64,000 bases of DNA, from assembly GCA_965200895.1 (NCBI GenBank), contig CBDAVM010000001.1:2484335-2548334 (forward strand), in the 5' to 3' direction. Under the pieces are notes generated by a model. The model was not told the DNA's origin. It did no database searches and saw only the letters and a list, made by a program, of their open reading frames with translations. Shown here one piece after another: positions 5,176 to 57,411 of this stretch; position 1 is the first letter of the stretch; each line of letters begins with the position of its first letter. Source of the stretch: Vicinamibacterales bacterium. GTDB lineage: Bacteria; Acidobacteriota; Vicinamibacteria; Vicinamibacterales; UBA8438. The position numbers were made by a program, and so were the translations under genes.

Positions 5176-5190
5176 GGCGCATCGCCGACC

Positions 5191-5477: not shown

Positions 5478-5589
5478 GGATCGTTTCTTGCGGTAAAGTA
5501 GGCTGCGGAGCAGCCAGGACGACAGGTCGTCCGAACATCGAACGCCCAGGGCGGCCGGGACCGGCGCAACACACAGGAGGGAGGACTCC

Positions 5590-9493: not shown

Positions 9494-10306
9494 ATGCGGT
9501 CGCTGGCGGCAGGGCTGTCGATCCTCCTCTGCCCGGCCCTCGTCGGCGGTGCGGCGGAGGCGCAGACGGTTCAGGAGACGCAGGCGTCGCAGCGCTCGAG
9601 AGGCAGGCTGATGGAAGTCGGGTACCTCAATCTCGACGCCGTGTATTCGAGCGGCGTCCATGCGGTGAGCCAGCATGTGTCGAGGCTCGTGTACGACGAA
9701 CCGGCCGGGTTCGATTTCCGGTACGCGACGCCGTACCGTATCGGGCTGGATGCGGCCGCCGGGCTGCGGTTGTGGAGCAACCTTTCGATCGGCCTGGGGG
9801 TTACGCGTTCGAGTGCTGTAACCGAGGTCGATGCGGCCGGAGTCGTTCCGCATCCGCTCTTCTTCCACCAGCCTCGCGAGGCGGAGCTTCGACTGGACGG
9901 CTTCAACCGCACGGAGCTCGGCATCCGCCTGCATGCCGCGTGGACGATCCCGCTGGCGGATCGGTTCGATGTGACGTTCTCCGCCGGTCCATCACTCTCC
10001 TTGGTGGATATCGACCGCGCGGTTCCGGACTGGCTCGATGTACGCGAGACGACACCCTACAACGACGTACAGTTCGATTTCGGTCGCGAGTCCGTGCGGA
10101 AGCGAGTTCCCGGCGCCACCTTCGGGGTCGACCTGACCTGCCATTTCCTCAGGCGCCTCGATCCCGGCGCGTTGTTCTGGACCGCGGGCATCGGGGTCTT
10201 CGCCCGCTGGACCACGGGCACGTCGGCGCTGCCGGAGTTCGGACCCGACGAGACCCTGGATGTCGGCGGTCTCCGATTCGGCGGGGGGATGCGGTTCCGA
10301 TTCTGA
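9494..10306 (+). CDS. Putative outer-membrane beta-barrel protein
   Basis: Internal ATG of the 9302..10306 ORF gives a signal peptide MRSLAAGLSILLCPALVGGAAEAQ. Alternating hydrophobic beta-strand pattern. Terminal ...GGGMRFRF with C-terminal Phe, as is typical for OM barrels. Confidence 0.55.
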   Translation: MRSLAAGLSILLCPALVGGAAEAQTVQETQASQRSRGRLMEVGYLNLDAVYSSGVHAVSQHVSRLVYDEPAGFDFRYATPYRIGLDAAAGLRLWSNLSIGLGVTRSSAVTEVDAAGVVPHPLFFHQPREAELRLDGFNRTELGIRLHAAWTIPLADRFDVTFSAGPSLSLVDIDRAVPDWLDVRETTPYNDVQFDFGRESVRKRVPGATFGVDLTCHFLRRLDPGALFWTAGIGVFARWTTGTSALPEFGPDETLDVGGLRFGGGMRFRF

Positions 10307-10370
10307 GCCCGCGATGCGTGCCCGTCGTGCGCTTTGCGGCGGGTCGGGGAGGTCGATCTACCATTTCAAG

Positions 10371-13756: not shown

Positions 13757-13837
13757 CGGGGCCGCTCCGGGAGCCTGCCGCCGCAGGAGTCGCTCCGTTG
13801 CGTTCTGCGGCGCAAGCTCCTAGACTGCGAATCTGAC

Positions 13838-18608: not shown

Positions 18609-18692
18609 ACCCGCGATGGCGAGCGTGGCCGGCGCCGGCGTTCGACGCATGCGGCGGGAGGTTCCCTCGCGGCGTGCGCCCTTTCTCGCGTC

Positions 18693-28069: not shown

Positions 28070-29022
28070 CCCGGACAGCGGACGGGAGGACCCGGATCCC
28101 CCGTGAGGTTGAAGCGGCGCAGCCGGGCGATCCGCGAGGCGCGGCAACGCCGGCAGGGCAGGACGCGGTCGATGTCCCACAGGTCCACCGTCGCCACGGC
28201 GGCGGAGATGCCGGCGCAACCCTCCATCGCTTCCTCGATCAGCTCGCGTGTGGGCGGGGTCCAGAGTCCCCGGGCCCGGAGCGCGTCCAGGGCGCCGTTG
28301 CCGTCGCGGGTCGGGATGAGGGTGACGTGTGCGGCCCCCTGATCGACCGCGTGGCGCGCCGCGTCGAGGGCCGCTTCGACTGCCCCGACCGACGGCACGA
28401 ACGGCGGCGGCAGCAGCACGAACGCGCGCATCCCGATGTTGCTCCGGGCGAGTCGCGCGGCGGCCCGATCGAAGTCCTCGATCGTCATGCCCTTGTCGAG
28501 TCGCACCAGAGCCGCCGGGTCCGCGGTCTCCAGACCCATGGCGACATCGAGCCGCCCGGGGATGCGGTCCGCGAATTCGAGGCAGCGCCGCCCGACCAGA
28601 CGCGGGTGGCACTCGACGGTGACGCGGTCGAACGGACGGAGGAGGGCGGCGATGGCTGTGTCGTCTTCCGGCGGGACGGCGCGCGCATCGAAGAAGTTGC
28701 TCGCGTTGTAGAGCTTGATCCCGCACCCGGCCGGCACCGCACCGGTATCCCGGAGCACGGTCTCCAACTGCCGGGGAACCGCACCGCGTGGCGTCGGGCC
28801 GTCGAGCGTCCGGCGCCACAGGTCGCAGAACACGCAGGTGAAGGGGCATTCCGCACCGGCGAGCAGCACCGTCAGCACCGGCGCGATCGAGCCGTCGAGC
28901 CGCCGCTCCTCCTCCTCGAAGTGGGCGATCGGGCGCATCGGATGCGGTTGGATCTTCGGGCCGCGCCGTGCTCGCGCCGCGCCGCCGGCGCGCCCTCCGC
29001 GCCGGGATGCCGGTTCAGGCAC
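28051..29022 (-). CDS. Radical SAM protein (small, no obvious SPASM domain)
   Basis: CxxxCxxC in AGAECPFTCVFCDLW. TIM-barrel-like length. C-terminal CRRC...CPGC pair. The start is ambiguous (GTG at 29022, or ATG at 28938 giving MRPIAHFEEEE). Overlaps the downstream gene by 19 nt. Confidence 0.75.
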   Translation of the reverse strand: MPEPASRRGGRAGGAARARRGPKIQPHPMRPIAHFEEEERRLDGSIAPVLTVLLAGAECPFTCVFCDLWRRTLDGPTPRGAVPRQLETVLRDTGAVPAGCGIKLYNASNFFDARAVPPEDDTAIAALLRPFDRVTVECHPRLVGRRCLEFADRIPGRLDVAMGLETADPAALVRLDKGMTIEDFDRAAARLARSNIGMRAFVLLPPPFVPSVGAVEAALDAARHAVDQGAAHVTLIPTRDGNGALDALRARGLWTPPTRELIEEAMEGCAGISAAVATVDLWDIDRVLPCRRCRASRIARLRRFNLTGDPGPPVRCPGCASSS

Positions 29023-30361
29023 GCGGCGCGTACTGGGCGAGGAAGTAGCCGCGATAGCGATCCGGGTCGCCGAACACCGCGTCGAACGCAGCGTCCGCCA
29101 GCGCCCCGTGCTGGAAGCGGCGTTTCGGAAAGACCGGCAACTCGCGGCCCAGCACCTGCCGCACGCCGCGGCCGAGCACCTCGCCCTTGAGGGCGTACAG
29201 GCGTTCGTGCGAGCCGCGGCTGAGCTCGTCGAACGGGATGCCCTCGGCCGCCGCGATCACGTCCGGTGCGGTGAAGGGGCTGACCAGGTGGAAGCCGTAC
29301 CGCCGGGCCGGCGCATGGCCGCGCACGCAGCCCCGGCTCAGGCCCCCGCTGTAGGTCAGCGAGTGCTTGATGGCGTCCACGCCCCAGCCCTCCTGGTACA
29401 GCATGCGGTTCGAGACGACGCTGCGGATGGTGAGTTCCGTGTTCTCCTCGATCGGGTAGTCCTTCAGGTTCTCGTCGCCGCCGTCGCCGTCGAAGAGCCA
29501 GCGCCAGCGCGGGTAGCGGGCCCGGACCCCGGCCAGCAGGGCCAGACCGACCGTGGCGCACTCGACATCGAGCGGCTTGTAGTCCTCGATGACCGCCACC
29601 GCCCCCCGCGGATCGAGCGCCCCGGCCGGTTCGTCGATCTCCTCCAGCAGGAACTCGAGGCCGGTGTCCCGCACGAAGCGGCGCGCCTGCCTGGCATCGT
29701 CGCCACCCCCGGCGACCGACAGCGTGAACGCCTTCAGCCGCGCCGGCGATTCCTGCCGCTGCAACAGCGCGTCATGCAGGCAGAGCAGCAGCGCGCCGCT
29801 GTCGAGGCCGCCCGAGAAGAGCACGCCGAGCGGCTCGTCCGGCGGCGCGGCGTCGAGCCAGGCATGGACCTCGGCCAGCGCCGCCGTCACGTAACGTCGC
29901 CCGATGAGGTCGAGATCGGTCGGCATGTCGGCCATCGCGGGGGCGAAGAACCGCGTATGGCGCGGCTTCGGATCCGGACAGCCGACCAGCGCGATCTCCG
30001 TCACGTGGTGCGCGGGCGCCATGCGCGTGTAGGTCGGGTGGAACTGGCTCGCGTAGCCCTCCGCCTCCAGGAAGCGATGGATGGCGTCGATGCGGTCGGC
30101 GATCACCAGGAGCGGTCCGGCCGCTTCCTTGGCCAGGAAGTAGCGCAGCGGCCGGCTGAGGCTGCGGACCAGGCGGACGCGTTCGCCCTTGCGGGCGACG
30201 AGCGCGAACGAGCCGCGGATGTCCAGTACCGCAGCCGGGTCGTCGGCCAGGAGGCGCCGGCGCGCCTCGTCGACCGTCATGTTGAGGATGTGCTGGTCCT
30301 CGTCCGGAATGAGGTTCGCAATCCGATGCACCGGATACTCGGCGATTGTGCTGGCGTCCAT
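29015..30361 (-). CDS. Asparagine-synthetase-B-like ATP-dependent amidoligase (PP-loop; no N-terminal catalytic Cys)
   Basis: PP-loop LGVLFSGGLDSGALLL. A vestigial Ntn-like N-domain (RGSFALVA) lacks Cys2. ATG at 30361 (MDASTIAEYP) with SD AGGGGA. The ORF extends to 30388. Confidence 0.75.
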   Translation of the reverse strand: MDASTIAEYPVHRIANLIPDEDQHILNMTVDEARRRLLADDPAAVLDIRGSFALVARKGERVRLVRSLSRPLRYFLAKEAAGPLLVIADRIDAIHRFLEAEGYASQFHPTYTRMAPAHHVTEIALVGCPDPKPRHTRFFAPAMADMPTDLDLIGRRYVTAALAEVHAWLDAAPPDEPLGVLFSGGLDSGALLLCLHDALLQRQESPARLKAFTLSVAGGGDDARQARRFVRDTGLEFLLEEIDEPAGALDPRGAVAVIEDYKPLDVECATVGLALLAGVRARYPRWRWLFDGDGGDENLKDYPIEENTELTIRSVVSNRMLYQEGWGVDAIKHSLTYSGGLSRGCVRGHAPARRYGFHLVSPFTAPDVIAAAEGIPFDELSRGSHERLYALKGEVLGRGVRQVLGRELPVFPKRRFQHGALADAAFDAVFGDPDRYRGYFLAQYAPRA

Positions 30362-30629
30362 GACAGGTTCCCCTGGATCGGATCCCAATCAGCCCGTGGC
30401 GGAAGTCCCCGCGGCATTCGAGCGGCCTCCGCCAGCCCGCGGAGACCGGTATTCACCCAACCGTTCCGAGCGGCGTGTATCGAGGGCAACCGCCAGCCCG
30501 GGGGACTCTTCGATATACTAACCGCTCTGCGGCGAGTTCGCCGCGTTGCCTGCACCGTCGGTTCAGGCACCGAGACCGGGCGAGCCGCCCCGCGTATCCG
30601 GAACTTCGCATAAGGGAAAGGCAAGCCGC

Positions 30630-36663: not shown

Positions 36664-37692
36664 CTAGCGCGACGCGTCCTGCCCCTCGCCCTCCAGGGCG
36701 CCGGCCAGAATGACCGCCATCGAGTAGTTCCCTTCGTGGCAGGCATACTCGAAGACAGGCGCCGGGTTCCACTGCATCGGGATCTCGTACGTCCAGGGGG
36801 CGGTCCACGTGTTCGGATCGTCGACCGTCACCTCGTAGAGCAGCACGCCGGCCGCCGCGCGGGTGAAGCGCTCGGTGAGTTGCAGGTCGGCAGTGGCCCC
36901 GCCGCGCATGAAGCTGGTCTCGCGCAGAAAGTTCGTGGTTTCGACGACAAGCGTGTCGCCCTCCCAGCGCCCGCGCGACTCCCCGGCCCACTGGCGCAGG
37001 CCGGTGAACGGCCGGCCGTCGAGCGGGATGACGCGCGGGTTGTGGTTCATCTCGTTGTAGATGACCACGGAATCCGGCGTCTGGAAGAGTTGCATGTTGT
37101 TGTTGTAGCCGCCCGGCGTCATCGGCGGTCCGGCATTGAAGCCGACGATGCAGCGCACCTGCAGCCCGTTGGCGCCGAGGTCATCGACCCAGCCGCCCGG
37201 CGTCGGCTGGTGCGGTCCGGTGTTCCTGCGTGCTTCCGCCAGTGCGTCGCGCCTGGCCTGCGCTTCCTCCGTGAGCGGCGGAATGCGCCCGCTGGGCGGA
37301 TCGACCACCAGCGACGTGCGGTTGGTGGAGACCGCCGACGTGCCGCGGTCGAACCAGAAGTTGTTGTACGACCCGGGTGCGCCGTCGACCCCGCGGTCCA
37401 CGTTGCCGGACGGGTCCGCTTCCGTTCGCCGGGCGGGCCGGGCGGCGAGATCGGCGTTCCGGTCGAGCGCCGCCTGCTCCAGGGCGGTCGCTTCCTCCGC
37501 GGTCAGGAACTCCTGCCCGGCGCGGTCTTCCGGGCGCTCCATCGGGGTGATGGTGCGGAAGTCCCAGACGCCCTGCAGATCGGGGTCGCCCCACGGCGTG
37601 GGTGGGACTTCGCCCTGCGCCGCGACGGACAGGGGAGCCAGTGCCGCGACCGCCAGGATCGTCGACAAACCCGCGATTCGTCCGCGTCCCAT
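36664..37692 (-). CDS. Conserved secreted hypothetical protein, paralog family member A (GRWEGDTLVV motif)
   Basis: ATG at 37692 with SD AGGAGG. Signal MGRGRIAGLSTILAVAALAPLSVAAQ. PDLQGVWD, GESRGRWEGDTLVVETTNF, VTVDDPNTWTAPWT. Confidence 0.7.
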   Translation of the reverse strand: MGRGRIAGLSTILAVAALAPLSVAAQGEVPPTPWGDPDLQGVWDFRTITPMERPEDRAGQEFLTAEEATALEQAALDRNADLAARPARRTEADPSGNVDRGVDGAPGSYNNFWFDRGTSAVSTNRTSLVVDPPSGRIPPLTEEAQARRDALAEARRNTGPHQPTPGGWVDDLGANGLQVRCIVGFNAGPPMTPGGYNNNMQLFQTPDSVVIYNEMNHNPRVIPLDGRPFTGLRQWAGESRGRWEGDTLVVETTNFLRETSFMRGGATADLQLTERFTRAAAGVLLYEVTVDDPNTWTAPWTYEIPMQWNPAPVFEYACHEGNYSMAVILAGALEGEGQDASR

Positions 37693-37960
37693 CAGACACC
37701 TCCTGCAGATATCGATACCGAAATCACCTGATGTATTGGAGAGTCCCACAATAACATGGCTCATTCGACCGGCAGAGTGCACCCGGTTCGCTGTCGTCAT
37801 CCGCAGCACCCGCCTGCTGCATGCCGGGAAAGCGGCTCGACTTCGCCGGGCGTTTGCCGGCCGGGCCGGCCCGCGGCGAGGCCATGCGGTGCAATTGCGC
37901 TGTTGTCCTCGCGGGTGTAACCTGCTGCATCATGCGGTCCGCGCCGACCGCGGGAGGGAC

Positions 37961-38380: not shown

Positions 38381-38515
38381 GAGCTTGCGCCGCAGAACGC
38401 AGCGAAGCGAAGTGCCGAGGCGCAGGGTCATGGAGCGGGGGATGGGCCGAAAACGCCGATCCCGCGCGGCGTTTCGGGGCGCTGGGGCGCCGTGCGCGCG
38501 CCATCGCGCGGAGGG

Positions 38516-39307
38516 ATGATCATCGTGTCCAAGCGATCCATGCCGGCCGTCTTCGCGGCCATCTGTTTCTGTCTGTTCCTGTCGCTGCCCGTGGCGGCGC
38601 CGGCGCAGTCCGGCTCTGCGGAGACCTACGTGCCGCCGCGCACGCCGGACGGGCAGCCCGACCTGCAGGGCATCTGGCAGGCGCTCAACACCGCCGCCTG
38701 GGACATCCAGGACCACCGGCCGAGCGCCGGGGTGCCCGCCGGCCAGGGCGTCGTCGACGGAAACGAGATCCCGTACCAGCCATGGGCGCTCGCGCAGAAG
38801 CGGGAGAACTACGAGAACCGGCTGACCGCCGACCCCAACCGGCAGTGCTATCTGCCGGGCGTGCCGCGGATCACCTACATGCCGTATCCCTTCCAGATTC
38901 TCCAGTTCTCCGATCGCATCCTGATCCTGTACGAGTATGTGCACGCCTCGCGCACCGTCTACATGGACGGAAGCGCGCACCCCGAGGGGCACATCGACTT
39001 CTGGATGGGCGATTCGCGCGGGCGCTGGGAGGGCGACACGCTGGTCGTCGACGTGATCCACTTCAACGACCGGACGTGGTTCGACCGGGCCGGCAACTTC
39101 CACAGCGAGGCCCTGCACGTGGTCGAGCGCTACACGCCGACTGGACCGGATCACCTGCACTACGAGGTCACGATCGAGGATCCGAAGGTGTTCACGCGGC
39201 CCTGGACGATGAGCATGCCGCTCTATCGGCGCCAGGAAGCGAACGTCCAGCTCCTGGAGTACGAATGCTACGCCTACTCCGAGGAGGAGCTGGCGGCGGA
39301 CAAATGA
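38516..39307 (+). CDS. Conserved secreted hypothetical protein, paralog family member B
   Basis: ATG at 38516 after GGAGGG. PDLQGIWQ, GDSRGRWEGDTLVVDVIHFND, HVVERY, VTIEDPKVFTRPWT. Confidence 0.7.
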   Translation: MIIVSKRSMPAVFAAICFCLFLSLPVAAPAQSGSAETYVPPRTPDGQPDLQGIWQALNTAAWDIQDHRPSAGVPAGQGVVDGNEIPYQPWALAQKRENYENRLTADPNRQCYLPGVPRITYMPYPFQILQFSDRILILYEYVHASRTVYMDGSAHPEGHIDFWMGDSRGRWEGDTLVVDVIHFNDRTWFDRAGNFHSEALHVVERYTPTGPDHLHYEVTIEDPKVFTRPWTMSMPLYRRQEANVQLLEYECYAYSEEELAADK

Positions 39308-39389: not shown

Positions 39390-40355
39390 ATGAGTAGACG
39401 CTGTGTCCGTGCCATGGTCGCGACGGCGGCCTGCGTGGCGACGGTTTCGCTGGCTTCGCCGCCCGCGTCGGGACCGGACCTGCCGGCGCCGCTGGCGGCG
39501 GTGGTCGTGGCCGCCGGCCCGGGCGGCTCCGGTGCAGGTGGCGGGCAGGCCGCGGAGCTGCCGCGGACTCCCGACGGCCACCCGGACATGCAGGGCTACT
39601 GGGACGGCGGCCCGGGCAATGCCTCGCACAGCATCGAGGAGGGCTGCTGCGACGCGATACACGCGCGGATGCAGAACCGCACACCGGACCGGCTCGGCCT
39701 GCCCGAGCCGATGATCGTCGACCCGCCGAACGGGCGGATTCCCTACCGGCCGTGGGCGGCGGAGAAGCGCATCGAGTTCCTGTTCGACATGGAGACTCCG
39801 ACCGAGCTGTCGCACATCGATCCCGAGGACCGCTGCCTGCTGAACGGCGTGCCGCGCAGCAACTACCGCGGGGATATCGAGATCAGACAGAACGACACCC
39901 ACGTGGTGATGCTGTACGAGTGGGCCCACGCCTACCGCGTCGTGCCGACGGACGGCAGCCCCCACATCGGTGCGGACATCGCCCTGTTCAACGGCGACTC
40001 GCGCGGGCGCTGGGAGGGCGACACGCTGGTCGTCGACGCGACGAACTTCAACGACGTGCCGTGGCTCGACTCGCACGGCAGCTTCTACAGCGAGCAGCTC
40101 CACGTGGTCGAGCGCTGGCGCATGCTCGACGCGGACACCATCCGCTACGAGGCGACCATCGAGGACCCGGCGGTGTTCACCCGGCCCTGGACACTCGCGT
40201 TCACCATGGGCCGCATCGGCGCCGACGGCGAATACGAGTTCTATGAGGAGGCCTGCTGGGAAGGCGTCACCAACCGGCGCCGGCTGGCCGCCGGGCGCAT
40301 CGCGGTCGCCAACGGCGAGCGCTTCATGCACACGCACGACGACCCGCAGCAGTAG
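39390..40355 (+). CDS. Conserved secreted hypothetical protein, paralog family member C
   Basis: SD GGGAGG. PDMQGYWD, GDSRGRWEGDTLVVDATNFND, HVVERW, ATIEDPAVFTRPWT. Confidence 0.7.
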   Translation: MSRRCVRAMVATAACVATVSLASPPASGPDLPAPLAAVVVAAGPGGSGAGGGQAAELPRTPDGHPDMQGYWDGGPGNASHSIEEGCCDAIHARMQNRTPDRLGLPEPMIVDPPNGRIPYRPWAAEKRIEFLFDMETPTELSHIDPEDRCLLNGVPRSNYRGDIEIRQNDTHVVMLYEWAHAYRVVPTDGSPHIGADIALFNGDSRGRWEGDTLVVDATNFNDVPWLDSHGSFYSEQLHVVERWRMLDADTIRYEATIEDPAVFTRPWTLAFTMGRIGADGEYEFYEEACWEGVTNRRRLAAGRIAVANGERFMHTHDDPQQ

Positions 40356-40421
40356 CCCGGCGGGCGCCGACCGGGGGTTGCGGTCATCGATGCGGGCCGC
40401 AGCCGCGGCACTCGGAGGGAG

Positions 40422-40451
40422 TTGACGTCAGGGAACACGGCAAGGTAGGGT
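40422..40451 (+). promoter_or_regulatory. Candidate sigma70-type promoter for the 40.5-45.7 kb operon
   Basis: TTGACG (40422..40427), an 18-nt spacer, then TAGGGT (40446..40451). This is the only -35-like hexamer in this intergenic region. Confidence 0.3.
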
Positions 40452-40500
40452 CGCCCACGGCATCGGGAGTGCGATTCACAGGACCGGTAGTCTGCGGCGA

Positions 40501-40974
40501 ATGTTGGGCCGACGCCCGGGCACGTGTTACGGGGGTCGGTCGTTTCGCGTACCGGCTGCCTGTGCCACGTTGCGCCGACGGCGCGAGAACGACATCGTGA
40601 CGGCTCATCATTTCATCGGGGAAGGCGACTTCTCGGACCGCCTGCAGGCCGCCTGTGGCGACCCGCCGAACCTGCTTGCCGTCGTCGCCGCCGCCGTGCG
40701 CGAGGCCGGCCTGCAGGTGGTTGCCGACCAGGCCGTGGAGTTCGCCGGTGGGGGCGCCACGCTGGTCTGGGTGCTCGCGGAATCGCATCTCGTCCTGCAT
40801 CTGTGGCCCGAGTTGAGCCGAGCCACCCTCGACCTGCACGTCTGCGACTACCGGGATTCGAACCGCGTCAAGGCGCGGCGGCTGCGGGATGCGCTGACCG
40901 CGCTCTGTTTCGCGCCCGATTCGGCGGCGTGGCGCGAACTGGCCGTCGGCGGAGATGCTGCGTCCGGTGGCTGA
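40501..40974 (+). CDS. S-adenosylmethionine decarboxylase-like (pyruvoyl, SpeD/SpeH class 1) protein
   Basis: LAESHLVLHLWPELSRATLDLHVCD matches the ESH self-cleavage site and HxxPE...C motifs of small bacterial AdoMetDC. The true start may be the GTG at 40597, which gives about 125 aa (typical size). Confidence 0.65.
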   Translation: MLGRRPGTCYGGRSFRVPAACATLRRRRENDIVTAHHFIGEGDFSDRLQAACGDPPNLLAVVAAAVREAGLQVVADQAVEFAGGGATLVWVLAESHLVLHLWPELSRATLDLHVCDYRDSNRVKARRLRDALTALCFAPDSAAWRELAVGGDAASGG

Positions 40975-41812
40975 TTCGGGCCATGAGGCCCAGTATCGCG
41001 GCTTCTGGGCCGACGTCGGCGCCACCTTTCCCGATCTTGCCGGCGCCCGCTCCACGACGCAGTACCGCCACGACGAACAGTGGCTCCTGCGCACGCAGTT
41101 GCCCCCGCTCGAGGACCTGCGGATCCTGAAGACGGATCTGTGGGATGAGGCGAAGAACACCCACGTGCTGCGCTGGGCCGCCGCCGAGGGCGCACGGGCG
41201 ATCGGCGTAGACATCTCGCCGGCCATCGCGATGGAAGCCCGCCGGGGATTCATCGTCGACGGCCATCGGCTGCTCGCCGTCCAGGGCGACGTGCGCGCCC
41301 TGCCGTTCCGGTCCGGCAGCGTCGACGCCGTCTACTCGATGGGCACCGTCGAGCACTTCGACGATACGGAAGGCGCGGTGCGCGAGATCTTCCGCGTGCT
41401 GCGTCCCGGTGGGCGAGCCATCATCGGCGTGCCGAACCGCCACGACCCGTTCCTGCGCCCACTACTGGTCGTGCTGCTGTACCATCTGGGTCTTTACGGT
41501 TACGGTTTCGAGAAGTCGTACTCGCGCCGTGCGTTGCGCGGCATGCTCGAACGCGCCGGCTTCGATGTGCGCGCCGAAACCGGTATCCTGTTCATTCCAG
41601 GCTGGCTGCGGATGCTCGATCTCGCCTGCCATGCGTGGTTGCGGCCGGTCGCCAGGTTGACCGGGGCATTGTGCGCCCCCTTCGACTGGCTGTCGCGGCG
41701 CTACCCGCGCCTTCGGCGCCACGGCTATCTGATCGCCGCCGTCGGAGTGCGGCCGGCGGTGAACAGGGCGGGCGCCGGGCCGGGAGTGTTCCCGGGAGGA
41801 ATCGCCGGATGA
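40955..41812 (+). CDS. Class I SAM-dependent methyltransferase-fold protein
   Basis: GVDISPAIAMEAR...GDVRALPFRSGSVDAVYSMGTVEHFDD...VLRPGGRAII (Methyltransf_11-like). Motif I is atypical (ILKTDLWDE instead of the Gly-rich loop). Overlaps the upstream gene by 20 nt. Confidence 0.7.
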   Translation: MLRPVADSGHEAQYRGFWADVGATFPDLAGARSTTQYRHDEQWLLRTQLPPLEDLRILKTDLWDEAKNTHVLRWAAAEGARAIGVDISPAIAMEARRGFIVDGHRLLAVQGDVRALPFRSGSVDAVYSMGTVEHFDDTEGAVREIFRVLRPGGRAIIGVPNRHDPFLRPLLVVLLYHLGLYGYGFEKSYSRRALRGMLERAGFDVRAETGILFIPGWLRMLDLACHAWLRPVARLTGALCAPFDWLSRRYPRLRRHGYLIAAVGVRPAVNRAGAGPGVFPGGIAG

Positions 41813-43236
41813 AGCCCTCCGCAACTTCTGATCGGTCCCCGAGCACGGGCTCCGGCGGCCTGCGATACGCCGCCACTGTCGGCGCCTGGTTCGTCGGGCT
41901 GTTCGGGCTGATGCGGCTCGGCTGGGTGGAGGGCAGCGTGCTGACTCCCTTCGCTCGCATCCAGCAGCAGGTGGCCGACCAGTTGACCGGCGCCCCGTCC
42001 GACCTGGTCTATGCCGACGCGAGCTGCAGCGGCGGCGACCCGATGGCGCTGTGCGCCGGGGCGATATTCTCCTTCCCCGCCGCCTGGGGCGCGCGTCTGC
42101 GCGGCGCGGCGTTTGGCCTGCTGTTGATCACGCTGCTGAACGTCGTCCGGTTGGGCCACCTGTCGCTGGTGGCGAGCGACCGCGCGCTGCTGGAACTGCT
42201 TCACATATACGTCTGGCCGGGCATCCTGATCCTCGCGACCACGGCCTACGTCTTCGGCTGGATGAACCGCCAGGGACCTGATGCCCCGGCCGGCGCCGCG
42301 CCGGGCGCCGTGGTGCTGGACAGTGCGGCGCGGCGGTTCCTGGTGCTGGCGGCGCTGCTGGTGGTCGTCTATTTCGCCACTGCGCCGTTCTTCTACGAGA
42401 GCCCGGCCGTCGACGTGATTGCGGGTTGGATTGCCGCCGTCGGCGGCGCCCTTCTGCACGCGGCAAGGACGGCGGCGACGGTCGAAGGTCCCCTCATCCG
42501 GACGGCGCACGGCGCCTTCGTCGTGACCCAGGAGTGCATCTTCACGCCGTTGATCCCGCTCTACATCGCCGGCGCGCTGACGGCGCGGCTGACGCCGGCG
42601 CGTCGCGCCGCGGCCCTGGCCGCGACGCCGGCGGTCTTCTTTGCGCTCGGCGTCTCGCGCCTGCTGGTGCTGGCCGTGCCCGCCGCCGTGATCGGTTCGT
42701 ACACCACGGCGATTCACGCCTTCTCGCAGATGCTGGTGGCGTTGATCCTGGTCGTCGCGGCCGCCGTCCGCGTCGTGGGACCGACGGCAGGAACGCGAGC
42801 CGCAACCATCCGCGCGCTGGGCGCGGTGGGACTCGGCATCGCTGCCGGAAGCGCGGCCGCGCCGGTCTGGGGCGCGCTGTTCGGCGGGGCGGCAGCGGGT
42901 CTGCAGGCTCTGGCAGGCCACCCGGGCCACGTCTTCGTCGACATCCAGGGCGCCTGGGCGATCGTGCCGGCCTTCCAGCTCGGCCTCTTCACATCCCTCT
43001 GGGCAGCCGTCGCGGGCCGGACCGGGTGGCGCCGCGCGGCGCTCGGGCTCTGCGTCCTCGCGGTTGCGCAGGCGGTGCTCGTCCCGGTGGTCGGGGAGCT
43101 CGCGCACCATTACGGCTTCGACCCGCACGTCGGACTGATTCGCGGCTGGGCCCTCGCCGCCCCGGCGGCGCTCGTCTGGCGGCTGCGCCGCCCGGCGCCC
43201 GGTGCGATCGGGTTGCCGACCCCGGTCAGCGCCTGA
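41809..43236 (+). CDS. Polytopic membrane protein with two tandem exosortase/archaeosortase-like cores
   Basis: ATGA overlap with the upstream stop. First core: ADASCSGG (C73), LLNVVRLG (R114), LLHIYVWPG (H132). Second core: TQECIFTP (C243), LGVSRLL (R284), AIHAFSQ (H303). Many hydrophobic helices. Confidence 0.6.
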   Translation: MKPSATSDRSPSTGSGGLRYAATVGAWFVGLFGLMRLGWVEGSVLTPFARIQQQVADQLTGAPSDLVYADASCSGGDPMALCAGAIFSFPAAWGARLRGAAFGLLLITLLNVVRLGHLSLVASDRALLELLHIYVWPGILILATTAYVFGWMNRQGPDAPAGAAPGAVVLDSAARRFLVLAALLVVVYFATAPFFYESPAVDVIAGWIAAVGGALLHAARTAATVEGPLIRTAHGAFVVTQECIFTPLIPLYIAGALTARLTPARRAAALAATPAVFFALGVSRLLVLAVPAAVIGSYTTAIHAFSQMLVALILVVAAAVRVVGPTAGTRAATIRALGAVGLGIAAGSAAAPVWGALFGGAAAGLQALAGHPGHVFVDIQGAWAIVPAFQLGLFTSLWAAVAGRTGWRRAALGLCVLAVAQAVLVPVVGELAHHYGFDPHVGLIRGWALAAPAALVWRLRRPAPGAIGLPTPVSA

Positions 43237-43266
43237 ACAGCAATACACTGTCAGACGCTGGACAAC

Positions 43267-45735
43267 GTGGCGGGAATCGAACGCTGGTTCCTTCGCATTG
43301 CATTGGGCGTGAGCGCTGTTGCGTGGCTCGCGCTCGTGCTGGCCGAGTTCGGCCGCTTTCGGATCGAACTGCTGCTGGCGCTGCTGCTGACGGTCGCGAT
43401 CGGTCTGGCGCTGCTCGCGTACGCCTTCTTCGCACCGCCGCCGCCGGCAACGCGCGCCCGAAGCGGCGCGCTGCCGCCGATCCTGGAATTCGGGGCGCTG
43501 CTGCTGCTGGCGGCCTGGCTGTTCCTGCCGCCCTACGAGGCGGTCGTCGCGGGGGGCGACGCGACCGTCTACCTGAACTTCGGCCGACGGATCGCCTCCA
43601 CCGGCACCCTCGAGTTCGAGGACGGACTGGTCAGCCGACTGCCCGCCGACATCAGAGCCGAGTTGTTCGAGAACCGCAGGCCGTCGGATGCGACCGGCCG
43701 CTACGCCCGGTTCCCGGGCGGCTTCCGGATCCCGGATATCGTCGATCCGACCGTCACGGCCGGCTTTTCGCCCTTGTTCCCGGTGCTGGCGGCGTTGTTT
43801 CACGAAGTCGCGTCGTTGCGCGGATCGCTGTTCGTGGCGCCGTTGTTCGCGACCTTGAGCATCGGCAGTCTGTTTCTCGTTGCCGCGCACATCGGCGGGC
43901 GCCGGGCCGGCTGGCTGACCGCGGCGCTGACCCTCGCTGCGCTGCCGCAACTCTGGTTCGCCAGGCTTCCCGTGCCCGAAATGGTGGCGCAGTATTTCGT
44001 GCTGACTGGCCTGCTGGCCTGGCTGGTCGCGAGGCGAGACGACGCGCGGCGCTGGGCGGTCGCCGCCGGTTGGTTGTTCGGCGTGGCCTGCTTCGCGAAG
44101 GTCGATCTGATCGTGCTGCTGTCGATCTCCCTGCTGGCGTTCAGCGCGTGGCGGCTGCTCGCCCGTCCCGACCGCGGCACGCGCGGGGTCGGCTGCCTGC
44201 TGGTCTCGTTCGGGCTGCTCCTGATCCACAACGGTGCGCACTATCTTGCCTTTGACTCCCACTATCGGCCCTACATCGAGTATCTGATCCGGACGTCCTA
44301 CCTGGGCGCCCTGTGGCGGCAGGCGGGGCCGACGGCGACCCTGGCGGCGGCGGCAGCCGGGCTCTTCGCGGCGGGACTCGTGTGGGTCGCCTGCAGGTGC
44401 TCGCCGTGGACGCGCCGCCGCGCCTGCGGGGCGGTGCTGGCCGGCATCGTCTCCGCCTACGCCGTCAACTACGCGGCGATCACCAACGCGCGGTTCGATG
44501 AGACGGTCGTCTGGCTGAGCTGGTACGTCTCCTGGCCCGTGCTGATCCTGGCGGCGCTCGGACTCGCAGGGCGGTTCGGCGCCGGTCTTGCTGGTCGTGG
44601 GGGCGGCGACCACGGGAGCGGGCTGGCGTTCGTCCTCCTCACGGTCGTCGGCCTGCACTACCTGTACGATCCGCTGGAACCGGGCGTGCACGTCTGGTCG
44701 ATGCGCCGCTTCACGCCGGTCGTGCTCCCGCTGCTGATGCTGGTCGTGTCGACAGCCGTCGCCGCGCTGGTGGGCCGCATCGCTCTCGGCTACCGGCGCA
44801 TCGTTGCGGTGGGCGTCGCCGCCGCGCTGGTGGGCCTGGTGGTCAGACCGAGCCTGGCGGTCGTGGGGAAGCCGCTGTGGGACGGCGCGCTTGCCCAGAC
44901 CGACGTCGTCGCAGGCCTGTTTCCCGCCCGCGCCGTCGTGCTGATGAGCCCGGGTCTGGCCGGCACGCACGTGCCGACGTCGCTGGCCTATCTGCACGAT
45001 CTCGACACCGTGCTGGTCCAGGGCAGCCCGGGCGGCGGCCGGCGATCCTCGTCGATCGCGAGGGCGGTCCACTTCTGGCTGGCGCGCGGGCGACCGGTCT
45101 TCTTCGTCTTCAGTGATCGGGACTTCTTTTCCTTCTTCGCACCGGAATTCTCGCTCACCGGGATCGGTCGCGCGCACATCGACCTGCTCATGCTGGAGCA
45201 GACGCGCACCAGAGCGCCGCAGGACGCCGTCCGGCCGCCGATCAGGTTGCGTGTGTTCCAGGTGCGGCGGACAGACACTGTCCCGGTGGCGGTCGACGTC
45301 GGAGATCCCGCCGCCGACGTGTTCTTCGGCCTGGAGGGCTTCCATGCGGCTGAACGCGATGGATGGGGGGACGGGACATTCCGTTGGAGCAGCGAGCGCG
45401 CCTCGTTCACGATTCCCGCGGGCGTGCATGCCGCCCTCACCGTGGCGGGGGGCAGACCGGCCGGCGCGCCGCCGGCGGCGCTGCGCGTCTGGATGGGTGA
45501 CGAACTGGTGGTGGAGCGCCGGGTGCTGGGCGATGAACCGCAGGTGATCGTCCTCGGTGCGCCGGCTGCGTCGGGGTCGACCAGGCTGACGATCGAATCG
45601 ACCACGTTCCAGCCCCGGGCGCTCGGCATCTCGGCCGACGCGCGCATACTGGGCGTGAAGTTGTACCGCGTGACCCTCGATGCGCGGGCGTTGCCCGAGC
45701 TTCAGGCGCCTCGGGGCGGTCGCGGCGCGCCGTGA
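43267..45735 (+). CDS. Large polytopic membrane protein, GT-C (ArnT/PMT family-39-like) glycosyltransferase candidate with a C-terminal soluble domain
   Basis: GTG start, 822 aa, at least 12 hydrophobic helices in the first ~530 aa. First-loop acidic motif GGDATVYLNFGRRIASTG resembles the DExxY loop of GT-C enzymes. The last ~250 aa are hydrophilic. Confidence 0.45.
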   Translation: MAGIERWFLRIALGVSAVAWLALVLAEFGRFRIELLLALLLTVAIGLALLAYAFFAPPPPATRARSGALPPILEFGALLLLAAWLFLPPYEAVVAGGDATVYLNFGRRIASTGTLEFEDGLVSRLPADIRAELFENRRPSDATGRYARFPGGFRIPDIVDPTVTAGFSPLFPVLAALFHEVASLRGSLFVAPLFATLSIGSLFLVAAHIGGRRAGWLTAALTLAALPQLWFARLPVPEMVAQYFVLTGLLAWLVARRDDARRWAVAAGWLFGVACFAKVDLIVLLSISLLAFSAWRLLARPDRGTRGVGCLLVSFGLLLIHNGAHYLAFDSHYRPYIEYLIRTSYLGALWRQAGPTATLAAAAAGLFAAGLVWVACRCSPWTRRRACGAVLAGIVSAYAVNYAAITNARFDETVVWLSWYVSWPVLILAALGLAGRFGAGLAGRGGGDHGSGLAFVLLTVVGLHYLYDPLEPGVHVWSMRRFTPVVLPLLMLVVSTAVAALVGRIALGYRRIVAVGVAAALVGLVVRPSLAVVGKPLWDGALAQTDVVAGLFPARAVVLMSPGLAGTHVPTSLAYLHDLDTVLVQGSPGGGRRSSSIARAVHFWLARGRPVFFVFSDRDFFSFFAPEFSLTGIGRAHIDLLMLEQTRTRAPQDAVRPPIRLRVFQVRRTDTVPVAVDVGDPAADVFFGLEGFHAAERDGWGDGTFRWSSERASFTIPAGVHAALTVAGGRPAGAPPAALRVWMGDELVVERRVLGDEPQVIVLGAPAASGSTRLTIESTTFQPRALGISADARILGVKLYRVTLDARALPELQAPRGGRGAP

Positions 45736-49120: not shown

Positions 49121-49501
49121 TCAGTGTTTCGTAGGGTCGTCGCCACTGCGGTTGCGGGCGGCCTCGAGCGCGGCGATGCGCGTGCCGAAGCCGTCGCGCA
49201 CGAGCGCGTCCACGGACTGCCGCAGGTCCCGCACGTCCCCGCGGACGATGGTCGTCTCACCTCGAGTGCGATCCTCGGCGGCGGTGATCTCCTCTCGGAG
49301 CCGTCCTTCAGCGGCGGTAATCTCCTCTCGGAGCCGTCCTTTAGCGGCGGTGATCTCCTCTCGAAGCTTCCCTTCGACGGCGGTGATCCGTCGTTCGATG
49401 GCTGCGAGATCCTCGCGTCGCTCTCGCCGCTCCCACCGCTGACCCATGATGACGGCGACGAATACCGCCACCAATCCCGCCAGCGTCAGTCCTTCGATCA
49501 T
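49121..49501 (-). CDS. Membrane-anchored coiled-coil protein with 11-residue tandem repeats
   Basis: MIEGLTLAGLVAVFVAVIMG TM helix, then EGKLREEITAAKGRLREEITAAEGRLREEITAAEDR. The upstream 19 codons of the ORF are excluded. Confidence 0.6.
   Translation of the reverse strand: MIEGLTLAGLVAVFVAVIMGQRWERRERREDLAAIERRITAVEGKLREEITAAKGRLREEITAAEGRLREEITAAEDRTRGETTIVRGDVRDLRQSVDALVRDGFGTRIAALEAARNRSGDDPTKH
49278..49400 (-). repeat. About 3.7 copies of a 33-bp in-frame tandem repeat inside 49121..49501
   Basis: Units at 49278..49310, 49311..49343 and 49344..49376, plus a partial fourth (gcggcggtgatctcctctcggagccgtccttca and variants). Confidence 0.85.
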
Positions 49502-49792
49502 GGTGCTCCGCCACCGCTCGCAGACAGATGCCTCGGTGAGACGTTCGTCATTGTACACGCCGACGCCCCGAACGCCGCGCTGGCTCGGCGTTCGACCCCG
49601 GCTCCATGACCTTGCGCCTCAGTATTTCGCCCCGAGCAAGGACGAACCACGTGGTCCGACAGCGATGGCGCGGCAGCGGGTTGGTGACGGCGCGCTCCAG
49701 CCGGCCCAGCGGGGACGTGGCCCGACAGCGACGGGTGCACGCGTGCAATGGCGGCCCGGGGGCGATGATCACCCCCGGCCGCCGTCGAGCGA

Positions 49793-54951: not shown

Positions 54952-56382
54952 TCATCCCGCGCAGCGGACGAGTCGGTCGCCCTCGTGGCACATCATCTGC
55001 AGCGGCGTCCGCTGCCGCTCGTTCATCGCCTGCAGGTCGCCGCCGTGGTCGACGAGGAGCTGGACGACCCCCGGCCACGCCTTGAAGACGGCCGAGTGCA
55101 GCGCCGTGTCGCCGGCGTCGTTGCGGGCGTTCACGTCGGCCCCCAGGCTGAGGGCGAGGCGCGTCGCCTCCAGGTTCGGCTGCTCGTCCGCGTGCAGGGC
55201 TTCGGCCACCTCGGGCGGCACGCGCCGGTCGTGGCGGTCGATCTCGCCGTTGCTCCAGCGTGCGCCGGCCGCCATCATCAGCGGCGTCGTCCCGTCCCGC
55301 AGCGGCAGCAGGGGGTTCGCCCCGGCGTCGGCCAGGATACGCATGATCCCGACATCGGCGTACTTCGCGGCCAGCAGGAACGGGGTGGCCCCGGCCAGCG
55401 ACGCCGGCAGGATCCACCAGTGGGTCGCCCGCGGCACGCGGCTGCCGCCGGTCATGCGGATGTCGGGGTCGGCGCCGTGCGCGAGCAGCGTCTCGACCAG
55501 CGGCGCATCGGCCCGCAGCACCGCGGTGTGCAGGGCCGCGTAGCCGGCCCCGGCCGCGTCGGGGTCGGCGTCGCGCTCCAGCAGGAATGCGGCCAGCGCG
55601 CCGTGGCCGCTGAAGCTGGCGACGACCAGCGCGGAGGCGCCGTCGGGCGCCGTCCCGTTGACGTCCGCTCCGGCATCGAGCAGCAGCCGCGCGCTTTCGA
55701 CCTCGCCGTGCCGGGCCGCGAACAGCAGCGGCGTGAAGCCGCCCAGCGGCAGGTTCCGCGCCCGCTCGTCGCCCCGGCCGCCCACGCTCACCAGCAGCGA
55801 GCGCGTCCGGGTGCGCGCGTGCACGTCCGCGCCGTGGGCCAGGAGCAGGCGCACCACGTCCGCGTGCCCTCCCGCCACGGCCCACATCAGGGCTGTCTGG
55901 CCGCGCGACGCCTCCCGCGCGTTGGCGTTGCTCGCCCCGTGCTCCAGCAGGGCCGCCACCGCGTCCGCATTGCCCGTCCGCGAGCAGGTCATCAGCGCCG
56001 TCTCGCCCATCGTGGTCGCGGCGTCCGGATCGGCGCCGGCGGCCAGCAGCCGCTCGACGAGCGGGGCGCTGCGGTTGATGCAGGCGAGCGCCAGCGGCGT
56101 CACCCCGTAGTCGTTCGCGGCGTCGACGTCGGCGCCGGCGCCGATCAGCAGGTCGACCGATTCGGGATCGTCCCGGCGGACCGCCCAGTGCAGCGGGGTC
56201 GCGCCGTCGGCCTCCGGCGCGTTCACGTCGGCATCGTCGGCGATGAGCGCGCGCAGGGCGTCGTGGTCGCCGCCGCGCACGGCCTCCTTGAGTCGCAGGT
56301 CGGCGGCGGCGGCAGGCGCGTTCGCGCCCGCCAGCACGGTTGCCAGCAGGACGGCGGTCGGGACGGCGGCTCCGGTGCGCAT
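54952..56382 (-). CDS. Secreted ankyrin-repeat protein
   Basis: Signal MRTGAAVPTAVLLATVLAGANAPAAAA. At least 8 ankyrin-type repeats (GATPLHWAVRRDDPESVDLLIGAGADVDA, GVTPLALA..., GQTALMWAVAGGHADVVRLLLAHGADV...). Confidence 0.85.
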   Translation of the reverse strand: MRTGAAVPTAVLLATVLAGANAPAAAADLRLKEAVRGGDHDALRALIADDADVNAPEADGATPLHWAVRRDDPESVDLLIGAGADVDAANDYGVTPLALACINRSAPLVERLLAAGADPDAATTMGETALMTCSRTGNADAVAALLEHGASNANAREASRGQTALMWAVAGGHADVVRLLLAHGADVHARTRTRSLLVSVGGRGDERARNLPLGGFTPLLFAARHGEVESARLLLDAGADVNGTAPDGASALVVASFSGHGALAAFLLERDADPDAAGAGYAALHTAVLRADAPLVETLLAHGADPDIRMTGGSRVPRATHWWILPASLAGATPFLLAAKYADVGIMRILADAGANPLLPLRDGTTPLMMAAGARWSNGEIDRHDRRVPPEVAEALHADEQPNLEATRLALSLGADVNARNDAGDTALHSAVFKAWPGVVQLLVDHGGDLQAMNERQRTPLQMMCHEGDRLVRCAG

Positions 56383-56516
56383 GCTCTACCTCCTGTTCCG
56401 GGTCGCCGCCCGCGGGCGGCGTGCGAGCGACCGGCCGAGCTGCGCTACGCGAGGATACAGCCGAGTATACGCCCATTCGCGGCGATTCGCCTGCGCCGTA
56501 TACGCGCGGCGTGTCT

Positions 56517-56921: not shown

Positions 56922-57130
56922 TCCGTGGAAAATCCCTTGCGGCTCGACAGATCGCGCGGTCCGCGCACGGAACCGGCCAGGCGCATGAAAGTGCGCGTCT
57001 CCCCCTCTTCACGCGCCTTCTGAAGCTGCTCGCGGACGATCTCGCTCCTGGACACGCCGGTCGTCGCGGATGCGTGCTTCAGCCACGCGGCGAGATCGGG
57101 CGTGAGACGCACCGTAATTGTATTACTCAT
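56918..57130 (-). CDS. vapB: Ribbon-helix-helix (CopG-like) antitoxin (VapB-like)
   Basis: MSNTITVRLTPDLAAWLKHASATTGVSRSEIVREQLQ is a classic RHH N-terminus. 70 aa. Confidence 0.75.
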   Translation of the reverse strand: MSNTITVRLTPDLAAWLKHASATTGVSRSEIVREQLQKAREEGETRTFMRLAGSVRGPRDLSSRKGFSTE

Positions 57131-57148
57131 CTGTCAGAAGTGTAATAC
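57120..57148. promoter_or_regulatory. Inverted repeat GTATTAC-N15-GTAATAC spanning the vapB start codon (candidate operator)
   Basis: Read directly at 57120..57126 and 57142..57148, in a local AT-rich patch. Confidence 0.3.
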
Positions 57149-57240
57149 GCGCTGTCCGCAGCGACAGTCGGTTCCTGCGTCCTGCATCCGACCTTCTGTC
57201 CGGGTGGAGGAGTCGAGAGTACCGCAGACGCGGCGCTCTG

Positions 57241-57348
57241 GGCGGTTTCGCCGATGCGACGATCGGGTGCTACCTTGAAACGGCGCTTCTTTCATTCTCC
57301 GAGTTGCCACTCGGCGGTTCCGCCGATGCGCCGATAGCGTGCTACCCT
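57241..57348 (+). repeat. Two copies of a ~36-nt imperfect direct repeat, 72 nt apart, upstream of 57412..59613
   Basis: ggcggtttcgccgatgcgacgatcgggtgctacct (57241..57275) vs ggcggttccgccgatgcgccgatagcgtgctaccct (57313..57348). Confidence 0.75.
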
Positions 57349-57411
57349 CCGCGCCGGCGTGCTCCGGCTTCCTGGCGAGGAGGGAGACGCGCCCCGGAGG
57401 AAGAGACACGC

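Follow-up and report, generated by a model that had tools for sequence, protein, structure and literature searches.

The operon described here lies at positions 40597-45735 (+) of a 64-kb stretch of DNA from a soil or marine member of the Vicinamibacterales (hereafter the window) and consists of four tightly packed genes, which we call g1 to g4 (Table 1). We consider it probable that this operon is an Acidobacteriota-specific variant of the exosortase protein-sorting system. As judged from its sequence motifs, g3 is a tandem exosortase with two Cys/Arg/His cores. Conserved gene order and in-frame gene fusions in relatives indicate that it forms one functional module with g1, a pyruvoyl decarboxylase resembling S-adenosylmethionine (SAM) decarboxylases (AdoMetDC), and g2, a protein with a class I SAM-binding fold. 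The glycosyltransferase-fold protein g4 is bound to this module less tightly than g1 and g2. Exosortase systems with accessory enzymes are already known; the tandem catalytic core, the SAM-enzyme partners with their fusions, and a VP(A/T)LP variant of the sorting signal are new.

Sequence features of g3, g1 and g2

The original prediction, made from the letters of the window, had described one set of exosortase Cys/Arg/His residues in g3. The family assignment is upheld by a match of residues 70-152 to the exosortase/archaeosortase signature TIGR04178 (28 bits against a cut-off of 23), but the protein carries two such sets, and both the tandem duplication and the relation to XrtH and its IPTL-CTERM signal had been missed. 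Repeat 1 (approximately residues 15-160) contains C73, R114 and H132 (codons starting at 42025, 42148 and 42202, respectively) in the sequences ADASC73SGGDP, NVVR114LG and LLH132IYVWP, and repeat 2 (approximately residues 170-330) contains C243, R284 and H303 (codons starting at 42535, 42658 and 42715) in VTQEC243IFTPLIP, GVSR284LLVLA and AIH303AFSQ. The Cys-to-Arg spacing is 41 residues in both repeats, and the Arg-to-His spacing is 18 residues in the first and 19 in the second. The remainder of the protein (approximately residues 331-475, ~145 residues) is a C-terminal four-helix module with invariant Q380 (42946) and R445 (43141). A profile search with g3 over 1.84 billion representative proteins returned 218 clusters at E <= 1e-30, and 62 representatives of these clusters, 29-47% identical to g3, were aligned; the sole invariant positions are C73, N111, R114, H132, P137, W151, C243, R284, P291, H303, F305, Q380 and R445. 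The middle domain was also scanned by itself in ten diverse members, and in nine it matched exosortase/archaeosortase models (XrtX at up to 35 bits, XrtH, ArtB and XrtY), the one without a match at E <= 0.01 being g3 itself. We read the architecture as a duplication because the triads are identically spaced and the repeats match these models independently. Profile comparison (hhalign) of the N-terminal, middle and C-terminal thirds of g3 gave E values of 0.05-0.2, which are not significant, at low alignment depth.

Full-length g3 also gives partial matches to named exosortase models, all of them far below the cut-offs: XrtX (NF046081) at 45.1 bits against 170, XrtH (TIGR04177) at 40 against 86, and XrtM at 36. 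Each repeat of the family is closest to the XrtX and XrtH models, and from this similarity and the cargo signals described below, the best description of the family is an XrtH/XrtX relative with a tandem core and an IPTL-like signal. The AlphaFold model of g3 is all-helical and polytopic. Helix positions and the distribution of Arg residues predict that the N- and C-termini are both inside the cell, which would put the two triads on the outward-facing side of the membrane.

The first gene matches Pfam AdoMet_dc (PF02675) at 55.8 bits (cut-off 25), which supports its reading as AdoMetDC-like. The ESH pyruvoyl self-processing site claimed for it is present: E62-S63 lies within LAESHLVLHLWPE, the codon of Ser63 being 40783-40785, and a His and a Cys follow. 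g1 aligns with the AdoMetDC of Aquifex (2III) and Thermotoga (1TLU) across the ESH..H..C pattern. The aligned segment, …LAESHLVLHLWPE…DLHVCD, includes the processing site and the catalytic residues, and within it vlaESHlvlHlwpe...dlhvCd pairs with LLAESHISIHTWPE...DVYTCG of 2III, as well as with 1TLU. The 125-residue product read from the GTG at 40597 is present in a public protein collection (P0121). Relatives with 50-60% identity from outside the Vicinamibacterales sit in unrelated gene contexts, and g1 alone is therefore no predictor of the module.

g2 matches Methyltransf_11 (PF08241) at 71 bits (cut-off 21.2), and its sequence matches in the PDB are methyltransferases (MTs), so that the class I MT fold first proposed for it stands. 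The atypical motif I that had been pointed out, ILKTDLWDE, is also present; within it KTDLWDE (41129-41149) takes the place of the glycine-rich motif. Aligned with the sugar O-methyltransferase AtmM (6UV6), g2 has LKTDLWDEAKNT at the position of LDVGCGVG, with a three-residue insertion, and keeps the downstream nucleoside-binding motifs GVDIS and GDVRALPF. It lacks the E/DxGxGxG form of motif I, and the replacement is conserved in its exosortase-fused orthologues, whose MT domains carry the g2 motifs KTDLWDEAKNT, YSMGTxEHF and GVPNRHDPFLRP.

Linkage and fusion of g1, g2 and g3 in relatives

A genome scan, limited to one genome per species, yielded 43 loci (numbered with the prefix L, as are the metagenome loci below), all from Vicinamibacterales, Vicinamibacteria or unclassified Acidobacteria metagenome-assembled genomes (MAGs). 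In 24 of them, tblastn places g1 and g2 beside g3 and in its orientation, the row being interrupted by one to three other genes in some cases; 23 loci have the pair upstream of g3, and in L015 it is downstream of one of the g3 copies. The closest relative, L001, has the same g1-g4 order and a g3 that is 80% identical. The genes expected to be syntenic in relatives are thus found together, and in some cases they are a single polypeptide. A subset of the distant g3 representatives is 600-850 residues long, and Pfam scanning reveals single-protein fusions of the exosortase (Xrt) with Methyltransf_11, with Methyltransf_11 and AdoMet_dc, and with AdoMet_dc. The fused decarboxylase domains keep ESH…H…CC, and the source names of these proteins are Acidobacteriota or Vicinamibacterales.

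The same association was recovered from metagenomes. A peptide specific to the MT was used to seed a scan, which brought up 403 relatives; the counts given here are from the 80 loci retrieved. An exosortase is fused or adjacent to the MT in 55 of the 80, which are all the evaluable ones; the remaining 25 have less than 2.3 kb of sequence upstream of the MT and cannot be judged. In-frame triple fusions of exosortase, MT and AdoMetDC-like decarboxylase (DC) occur in 12 of the 80 loci, and gene orders vary among Xrt-MT-DC, DC-Xrt-MT, DC-Xrt-X-MT (X being a membrane protein described below) and Xrt-MT with DC on the opposite strand. One cluster of fused proteins has six full-length members of 850 residues from JGI and Logan records; these six, together with the 12 loci from several samples, make it unlikely that the fused reading frames are assembly artefacts. 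Conserved synteny and in-frame fusion in relatives place the arrangement far beyond chance. The strongest computational evidence that g1, g2 and g3 share a function is that their linkage survives both rearrangement and fusion.

A neighbour-joining tree of the exosortases separates a g1/g2-linked clade, which includes the window and has a g4-only subclade, from a cargo-linked clade, and L015 holds one exosortase copy of each clade, flanking g1 and g2. Between the cargo-linked exosortase and the second g1-g2-exosortase set of L015 lies a fused LptF/LptG permease (L015:9007-11340, 502 bits), and the second exosortase is split over several frames (L015:12257-15038), as a pseudogene or through long-read indels. 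In L010 (6590-6838) and L019 (6678-6935), only the C-terminal ~85 residues of a g2-type MT are left directly upstream of the exosortase, which suggests that the MT gene has been decaying in some members of the cargo-linked clade.

Several further proteins were noted next to the exosortase genes. A conserved secreted protein of ~195 residues (cluster c5) that ends in ...ARLPVVLE is encoded at L008:6116-6700 and in 11 other loci (L024, L026, L029, L030, L032, L033, L037, L039, L040, L041 and L043). It is directly upstream of the exosortase, and between the MT and the exosortase where the locus has both; it has no Pfam or NCBIfam match, and the window does not encode it. In L009, the exosortase gene is directly preceded by that of a membrane-anchored sulfatase-family protein (3954-6794), the architecture of which we take to be LtaS/EptA-like, and a protein with a VPALP tail is also nearby. 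EptA-type enzymes install phosphoethanolamine, an amine-bearing group. One candidate fusion of 1297 residues (P0392) was rejected, as it looks like a run-on into the downstream gene; an FtsX/MacB-type permease is encoded further downstream in the related locus L053.

Cargo signals, outer-face transferases and a possible mechanism

Signals composed of a C-terminal motif, a transmembrane (TM) helix and a basic tail adjoin the exosortase in at least 15 of the 43 genome loci and in 17 of the 80 metagenome loci. In the clade of exosortase paralogues that lack g1 and g2, the exosortase is directly preceded by a gene for a secreted FN3-repeat protein with an acidic or Thr/Pro-rich linker that is followed by …(T/V)PALP(L/V/I)xG, a hydrophobic helix and RRRLRR. 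The (T/V)PALP tail is also found on proteins near g1/g2-linked exosortases in L034 and L035, and in L001 a small Cys-containing protein with a tail of this type is encoded immediately upstream of g1. The neighbouring proteins in the 17 metagenome loci, triple fusions included, have VP(A/T)LP… or (I/V)PTLSxW… tails, and four of these tails, from loci of distant relatives, pass the IPTL-CTERM model TIGR04174 (32-44 bits against 20.5). The other IPTL-CTERM model, PF18203, is passed by an ice-binding-like protein from such a locus (29.8 bits against 20.8), which also matches PF11999 at 211 bits. The VP(A/T)LP tails of the window's own clade pass no known sorting-domain model, their best match being IPTL-CTERM at 18 bits. 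IPTL-CTERM is an XrtH-type signal, and one NCBIfam family with an IPTL-like motif is named 'midcut-by-XrtH'.

The fourth gene was described originally as an 822-residue polytopic GT-C-like protein, and fold comparison agrees with this reading. Its PMT_2 score is 18 bits, below the cut-off of 26.1, and many homologues with 50-57% identity carry a precomputed PF13231 match. In a Foldseek search of the PDB with its AlphaFold model (mean predicted local distance difference test score, pLDDT, 84.2; predicted template-modelling score, pTM, 0.85), the top 21 matches are all GT-C enzymes, among them STT3 (E 2.9e-8) and ArnT (E 6.3e-7), both at probability 1.00; AftD, AglB, PglB, ALG9, EmbB and AftA are further matches to this fold. 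The model predicts a polytopic N-terminal domain and a periplasmic C-terminal region composed of an alpha/beta part and a beta-sandwich, the latter matching CBM35, CBM6 and CBM36 of the carbohydrate-binding modules (CBMs) by Foldseek. D98 (43558) of the sequence GGDATVY is invariant across 46 homologues and, according to the model, probably sits in the first outer loop.

g4 lies 3' of g3 in six related genome loci (L001, L002, L016, L018, L021 and L025) as well as in the window, and this looser linkage, compared to that of g1 and g2, had not been noticed before. A different membrane protein, X, with ~660 residues, a polytopic body and a C-terminal beta-rich domain, is a neighbour of the module in 49 of the 80 metagenome loci; in L050 it lies upstream of the fused gene. 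X has no Pfam or NCBIfam match, and the family profiles of g4 and X have none among PDB sequences. The C-terminal domains of X and g4 align by hhalign at E 2.3e-4 (probability 45%) and share a G(F/W)xxxE…(F/W)(R/Q)W motif. L004 has a TMEM260-like protein O-mannosyltransferase (66 bits) downstream of the exosortase, and in L055 an NAD-dependent epimerase, a g4 homologue, AdoMet_dc and Methyltransf_11 are contiguous, with an exosortase ~9 kb off. A 485-residue protein upstream of the g4 homologue in L054 was examined as a candidate and is not an exosortase. The module is therefore repeatedly accompanied by a large membrane transferase of the outer face, but the protein in this role can be exchanged.

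The domain identities, the double triad, the linkage and the signal in relatives support the original suggestion that a surface protein or lipid is covalently modified in connection with a sortase-like transpeptidation. They can be arranged into a reaction scheme, the chemistry of which is inferred. g3 would act as a membrane cysteine transpeptidase built of two minimal exosortase cores. It would recognize secreted proteins with an IPTL-CTERM-type C-terminus, mostly (T/V)P(A/T)LP followed by a TM helix and an Arg cluster, and remove the signal helix via a Cys thioester on the outer side of the membrane. g1 and g2 would be its dedicated cytoplasmic partners, a location predicted from their fusion in relatives to the cytoplasmic C-terminus of the exosortase. 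After self-processing at Glu62-Ser63 to the pyruvoyl enzyme, g1 would decarboxylate SAM, its candidate substrate. g2, in which the loop that binds the SAM tail is remodelled and acidic, would use the product of g1, or SAM itself, to equip a membrane-bound carrier with an aminopropyl group or N-methylated amine. Flipped to the outer face, the primary amine of the carrier would resolve the exosortase thioester as the nucleophile, leaving the cargo amide-linked to an amine acceptor. g4 would act on the same face with a polyprenyl-phosphate-linked donor, and the target of g4 (or X) may be the Thr/Pro-rich or acidic linker of the cargo that precedes the signal, or the acceptor itself. That a two-site exosortase joins IPTL or VP(A/T)LP cargo by an amide to a SAM-derived aminopropyl or polyamine-like acceptor on a carrier is a tentative proposal, more doubtful than the sorting function as such. 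It mirrors the ethanolamine-lipid role proposed for archaeosortase A (ArtA) and rhombosortase. Substrate lipidation by ArtA requires PssA and PssD, and artA is syntenic with both genes in Methanosarcina (PMC7157517). The authors of that study propose that the ethanolamine amine attacks the ArtA thioester, and they note that a glycerophosphoethanolamine moiety has been implicated for rhombosortase (PMC7157517).

The same sorting system could run on different small-molecule chemistry, with g1 as an ornithine or arginine decarboxylase that supplies putrescine or agmatine, g2 as a genuine N- or O-methyltransferase, and the diamine, possibly methylated, as nucleophile or modifier. SpeD homologues that occur without SpeE have repeatedly proved to be ornithine or arginine decarboxylases; such neofunctionalized forms occur widely, with the catalytic Ser, His and Cys unchanged (PMC10407285). 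This version is further favored by the score of g1 against the AdoMetDC equivalog TIGR03330 (47.8 bits, below the cut-off of 75.65), by the restriction of g2 matches to methyltransferase models, and by the unrelated gene contexts of g1 relatives at 50-60% identity. On the other side, g1 is fused to a SAM-binding-fold domain in two Pfam-scanned representatives and 12 metagenome loci, of which a shared SAM-derived substrate is the simplest account. Neither the window nor the tables of called genes for related loci show an agmatinase or other polyamine gene, and a plain methyltransferase would not usually have a motif I as remodelled and acidic as that of g2. We regard the amino-acid decarboxylase version as unlikely, though still worth weighing.

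A second alternative separates the module from protein sorting: the g1/g2-linked exosortase would have been co-opted as an acyl- or peptidyltransferase for a SAM-derived lipid, glycan or polyamine conjugate, and the FN3-linked paralogue would sort the cargo. The split of the tree into two clades, the presence of one copy of each kind in L015 and the lack of a cargo gene in the flanks of most g1/g2-linked loci all fit such a division of labor. Nevertheless, both triads are invariant in both clades, and cargo genes adjoin g1/g2-linked or fused exosortases in L001, L034, L035 and the 17 metagenome loci, the triple fusions of L058, L059, L062, L065, L069 and L072 included, which makes this alternative improbable. 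Least credible, and in our judgment very nearly negligible, is an accidental juxtaposition of a small polyamine or methylation operon (g1 and g2) with an unrelated envelope operon (g3 and g4): g4 homologues do occur away from an exosortase, sometimes without one in the locus (L054), and the flanking window genes are unrelated to the operon, but in-frame fusions of g1, g2 and g3 recur in many independent metagenomes and the MT-exosortase linkage holds in every evaluable locus and across several gene orders.

Several observations weigh against a sorting system with a SAM-derived acceptor, and they bear on each of its parts. For g1, the sub-threshold equivalog score and the history of SpeD homologues without SpeE count here as well, and no partner of the Spermine_synth or spermidine-synthase type was found in g2 or in the ~35 other window open reading frames (ORFs) scanned. 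g2, lacking the glycine-rich motif I, could be a plain methyltransferase. For g3, hhalign of the two halves is not significant (E 0.2), the weak alignment being in the register expected for the triads, and a Foldseek search of the PDB with its model returned only non-specific helical bundles (E > 0.5), so that no solved structure matches. g4 is linked in only 6 of the 43 genome loci and is elsewhere replaced by X. As the original prediction had stated for PEP-CTERM-type substrates, the 64-kb window has no protein with a C-terminal sorting signal by hidden Markov model (HMM) or regular-expression search, nor does it contain a homologue of the L001 cargo protein; a candidate signal family, which the original prediction had called for in the genome, is present beside the exosortase in relatives. 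Even there, only a minority of g1/g2-linked loci have a cargo gene within 7 kb. Because the SAM chemistry would be cytoplasmic and the triads are predicted to face outward, the scheme requires a carrier and a flipping step, for which neither a carrier nor a flippase was identified, and the literature searched contains no experimentally defined acceptor of a bacterial exosortase.

Surroundings of the operon and relation to known systems

The junctions claimed for the four genes, a 20-nt overlap, an ATGA overlap and a 30-nt gap, are all borne out by the coordinates (Table 1). The proposed start at 40422 is not, as no gene begins there: the first ATG of the g1 ORF is at 40501, and the start in the public collection is the GTG. 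The leader has no sigma-70 consensus promoter, and no Rfam family, SAM riboswitches included, matched in the leader or the window. The G+C content of the window is ~70%. Directly 3' of g4 is recO (RecO_N and RecO_C; TIGR00613, 109 bits).

Table 1. Coordinates of the operon and its leader in the window
Feature	Position	Strand	Description	Boundaries
Leader 5' of g1	40356..40596	+	241-nt intergenic region	40501-40596 coding if ATG 40501 is the true start
g1	40597..40974	+	Class-1b AdoMetDC-like pyruvoyl decarboxylase proenzyme (predicted), 125 aa	GTG start
g2	40955..41812	+	Class I SAM-binding-fold (Methyltransf_11) protein, 285 aa	ATG start; 20-nt overlap with g1
g3	41809..43236	+	Putative tandem exosortase-family membrane protein, 475 aa	ATG start; ATGA overlap with g2
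g4	43267..45735	+	GT-C-fold glycosyltransferase (predicted), 822 aa, CBM-like C-terminal domain	GTG start; 30-nt gap after g3

The remaining genes of the window are of kinds typical for Acidobacteriota and have no evident link to the operon; their products include CarboxypepD_reg outer-membrane barrels as well as FG-GAP/ASPIC, TPR, ankyrin-repeat and DUF1585-DUF1595 proteins. Three paralogous secreted proteins of 270-380 residues (cluster c6), which have a TPDGxPD(L/M)QGxW motif in common and match neither Pfam nor NCBIfam models, are encoded 5' of the operon at 36664-37809 (-), 38492-39307 (+) and 39390-40355 (+). In L003, L005, L036 and L038 a member of this family is encoded just before the module, and in L025 one is encoded upstream of the exosortase; the family may represent a fifth component with loose linkage, or cargo particular to the clade that has no classical tail. 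The small protein encoded at 49121-49558 (-) has no Pfam match; its N-terminal part is a TM helix, after which come tandem coiled-coil repeats of 11 residues (EEITAAxGRLR). Similar proteins, with a TM helix and (ARIDEVRTELG)n, recur in many related loci (cluster c3). The product of 54952-56385 (-) is a 477-residue ankyrin-repeat protein (Ank_2, 207 bits). Ankyrin-repeat proteins are typical of sponge-associated symbionts, and several close g3 and g4 homologues come from MAGs whose naming we take to be of the sponge-metagenome type. For an 831-residue ORF at 57118-59613 (+), which has a coding-like G+C content at third codon positions, Pfam gave no match at E <= 0.05. At 10137-12140, 13757-15589 and 18609-20456 (+), three FG-GAP/ASPIC (UnbV) paralogues are interleaved with TPR and VWA proteins. 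A protein with an Asn_synthase domain (39.7 bits) is encoded at 29015-30388 (-), ~10 kb upstream of the operon, and no linkage of it to the operon is seen in relatives.

Among described systems, the closest in catalytic core are XrtH, XrtX, XrtY and XrtM, with which g3 shares the minimal exosortase core and its Cys, Arg and His residues. XrtH is paired with IPTL-CTERM cargo, and cargo proteins in some of the related loci carry bona fide IPTL-CTERM domains. XrtH and XrtX are proteins of ~160 residues with one core, whereas g3 has 475 residues, two cores and an additional four-helix module; the signal of XrtH is IPTL, whereas the window's clade uses the VP(A/T)LP variant that fails the IPTL model. 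We know of no dedicated AdoMetDC-like or MT partners of XrtH.

Archaeosortase A with PssA and PssD offers a parallel in chemistry. In Haloferax and Methanosarcina it is likewise a sortase-like membrane peptidase that depends on a decarboxylase creating a primary amine on a lipid (PMC7157517), but this enzyme belongs to another family and acts on phosphatidyl- or archaetidylserine, whereas the candidate substrate of g1 is SAM. Phosphatidylserine decarboxylases are pyruvoyl enzymes. Unlike the g1-g3 module, archaeosortase A has a single core, a PGF-CTERM signal, no methyltransferase-fold partner and no fusions.

Loci of other exosortases also contain dedicated enzymes for small molecules or glycosylation, which implies modification coupled to sorting. 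XrtA/PEP-CTERM loci for extracellular polysaccharide reportedly contain a pyridoxal-phosphate-dependent decarboxylase, an acyl-CoA ligase and asparagine-synthase-like amidotransferases (Haft et al. 2012; TIGRFAMs/NCBIfam descriptions). The amidotransferases are system-associated in XrtA loci, and XrtG travels with a paired glycosyltransferase. These enzyme families are entirely different from those of the present operon, and we know of no SAM enzymes, GT-C proteins or fusions in XrtA or XrtG systems.

The polyamine enzymes SpeD and SpeE resemble g1 and g2 in that a class-1b pyruvoyl AdoMetDC-like protein is combined with a class I SAM-fold transferase, and their pathway is the sole known use of decarboxylated SAM (PMC10407285). 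They differ in that g2 matches methyltransferase models and has no Spermine_synth Pfam match, in that g1 and g2 are tethered to a membrane peptidase, and in the absence of polyamine genes nearby among the ORFs scanned. A sorting-peptide peptidase is coupled to a SAM-dependent methyltransferase that modifies the new terminus in PilD, where the two are fused, and in CAAX processing by Rce1 and ICMT. Their folds are unrelated to those of g2 and g3, and both the cut end and the methyltransferase are cytoplasmic in those systems. In the present case, g2 would not be able to reach the new cargo C-terminus, because the signal motif is on the outer side of the helix.

The literature searched in full text contains no paper that links exosortases with AdoMetDC or g2-type methyltransferases, in keeping with the earlier remark that a described system of this composition was not known. 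No NCBIfam equivalog model fits g1, g2, g3 or g4, and their source names are no more specific than 'exosortase/archaeosortase family protein', 'methyltransferase domain-containing protein', 'S-adenosylmethionine decarboxylase' and 'hypothetical protein'.

To our knowledge, exosortases are widespread, and both the target to which their cargo is attached and transpeptidation itself have been open questions since the descriptions of 2006-2012. SAM-related enzymes that are welded to an exosortase point to a concrete source of acceptor chemistry, and a tandem, doubly catalytic exosortase would be a new architecture for the family. The module is common in Vicinamibacterales and related Acidobacteriota, with 403 relatives in one metagenome scan; these are abundant and poorly understood soil and sponge-associated bacteria, and the surface proteins of those that bear the module include FN3 and ice-binding-like types. 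If the aminopropyl-acceptor reading is true, it would provide the first acceptor pathway for a bacterial exosortase and a new kind of C-terminal protein modification or anchor.

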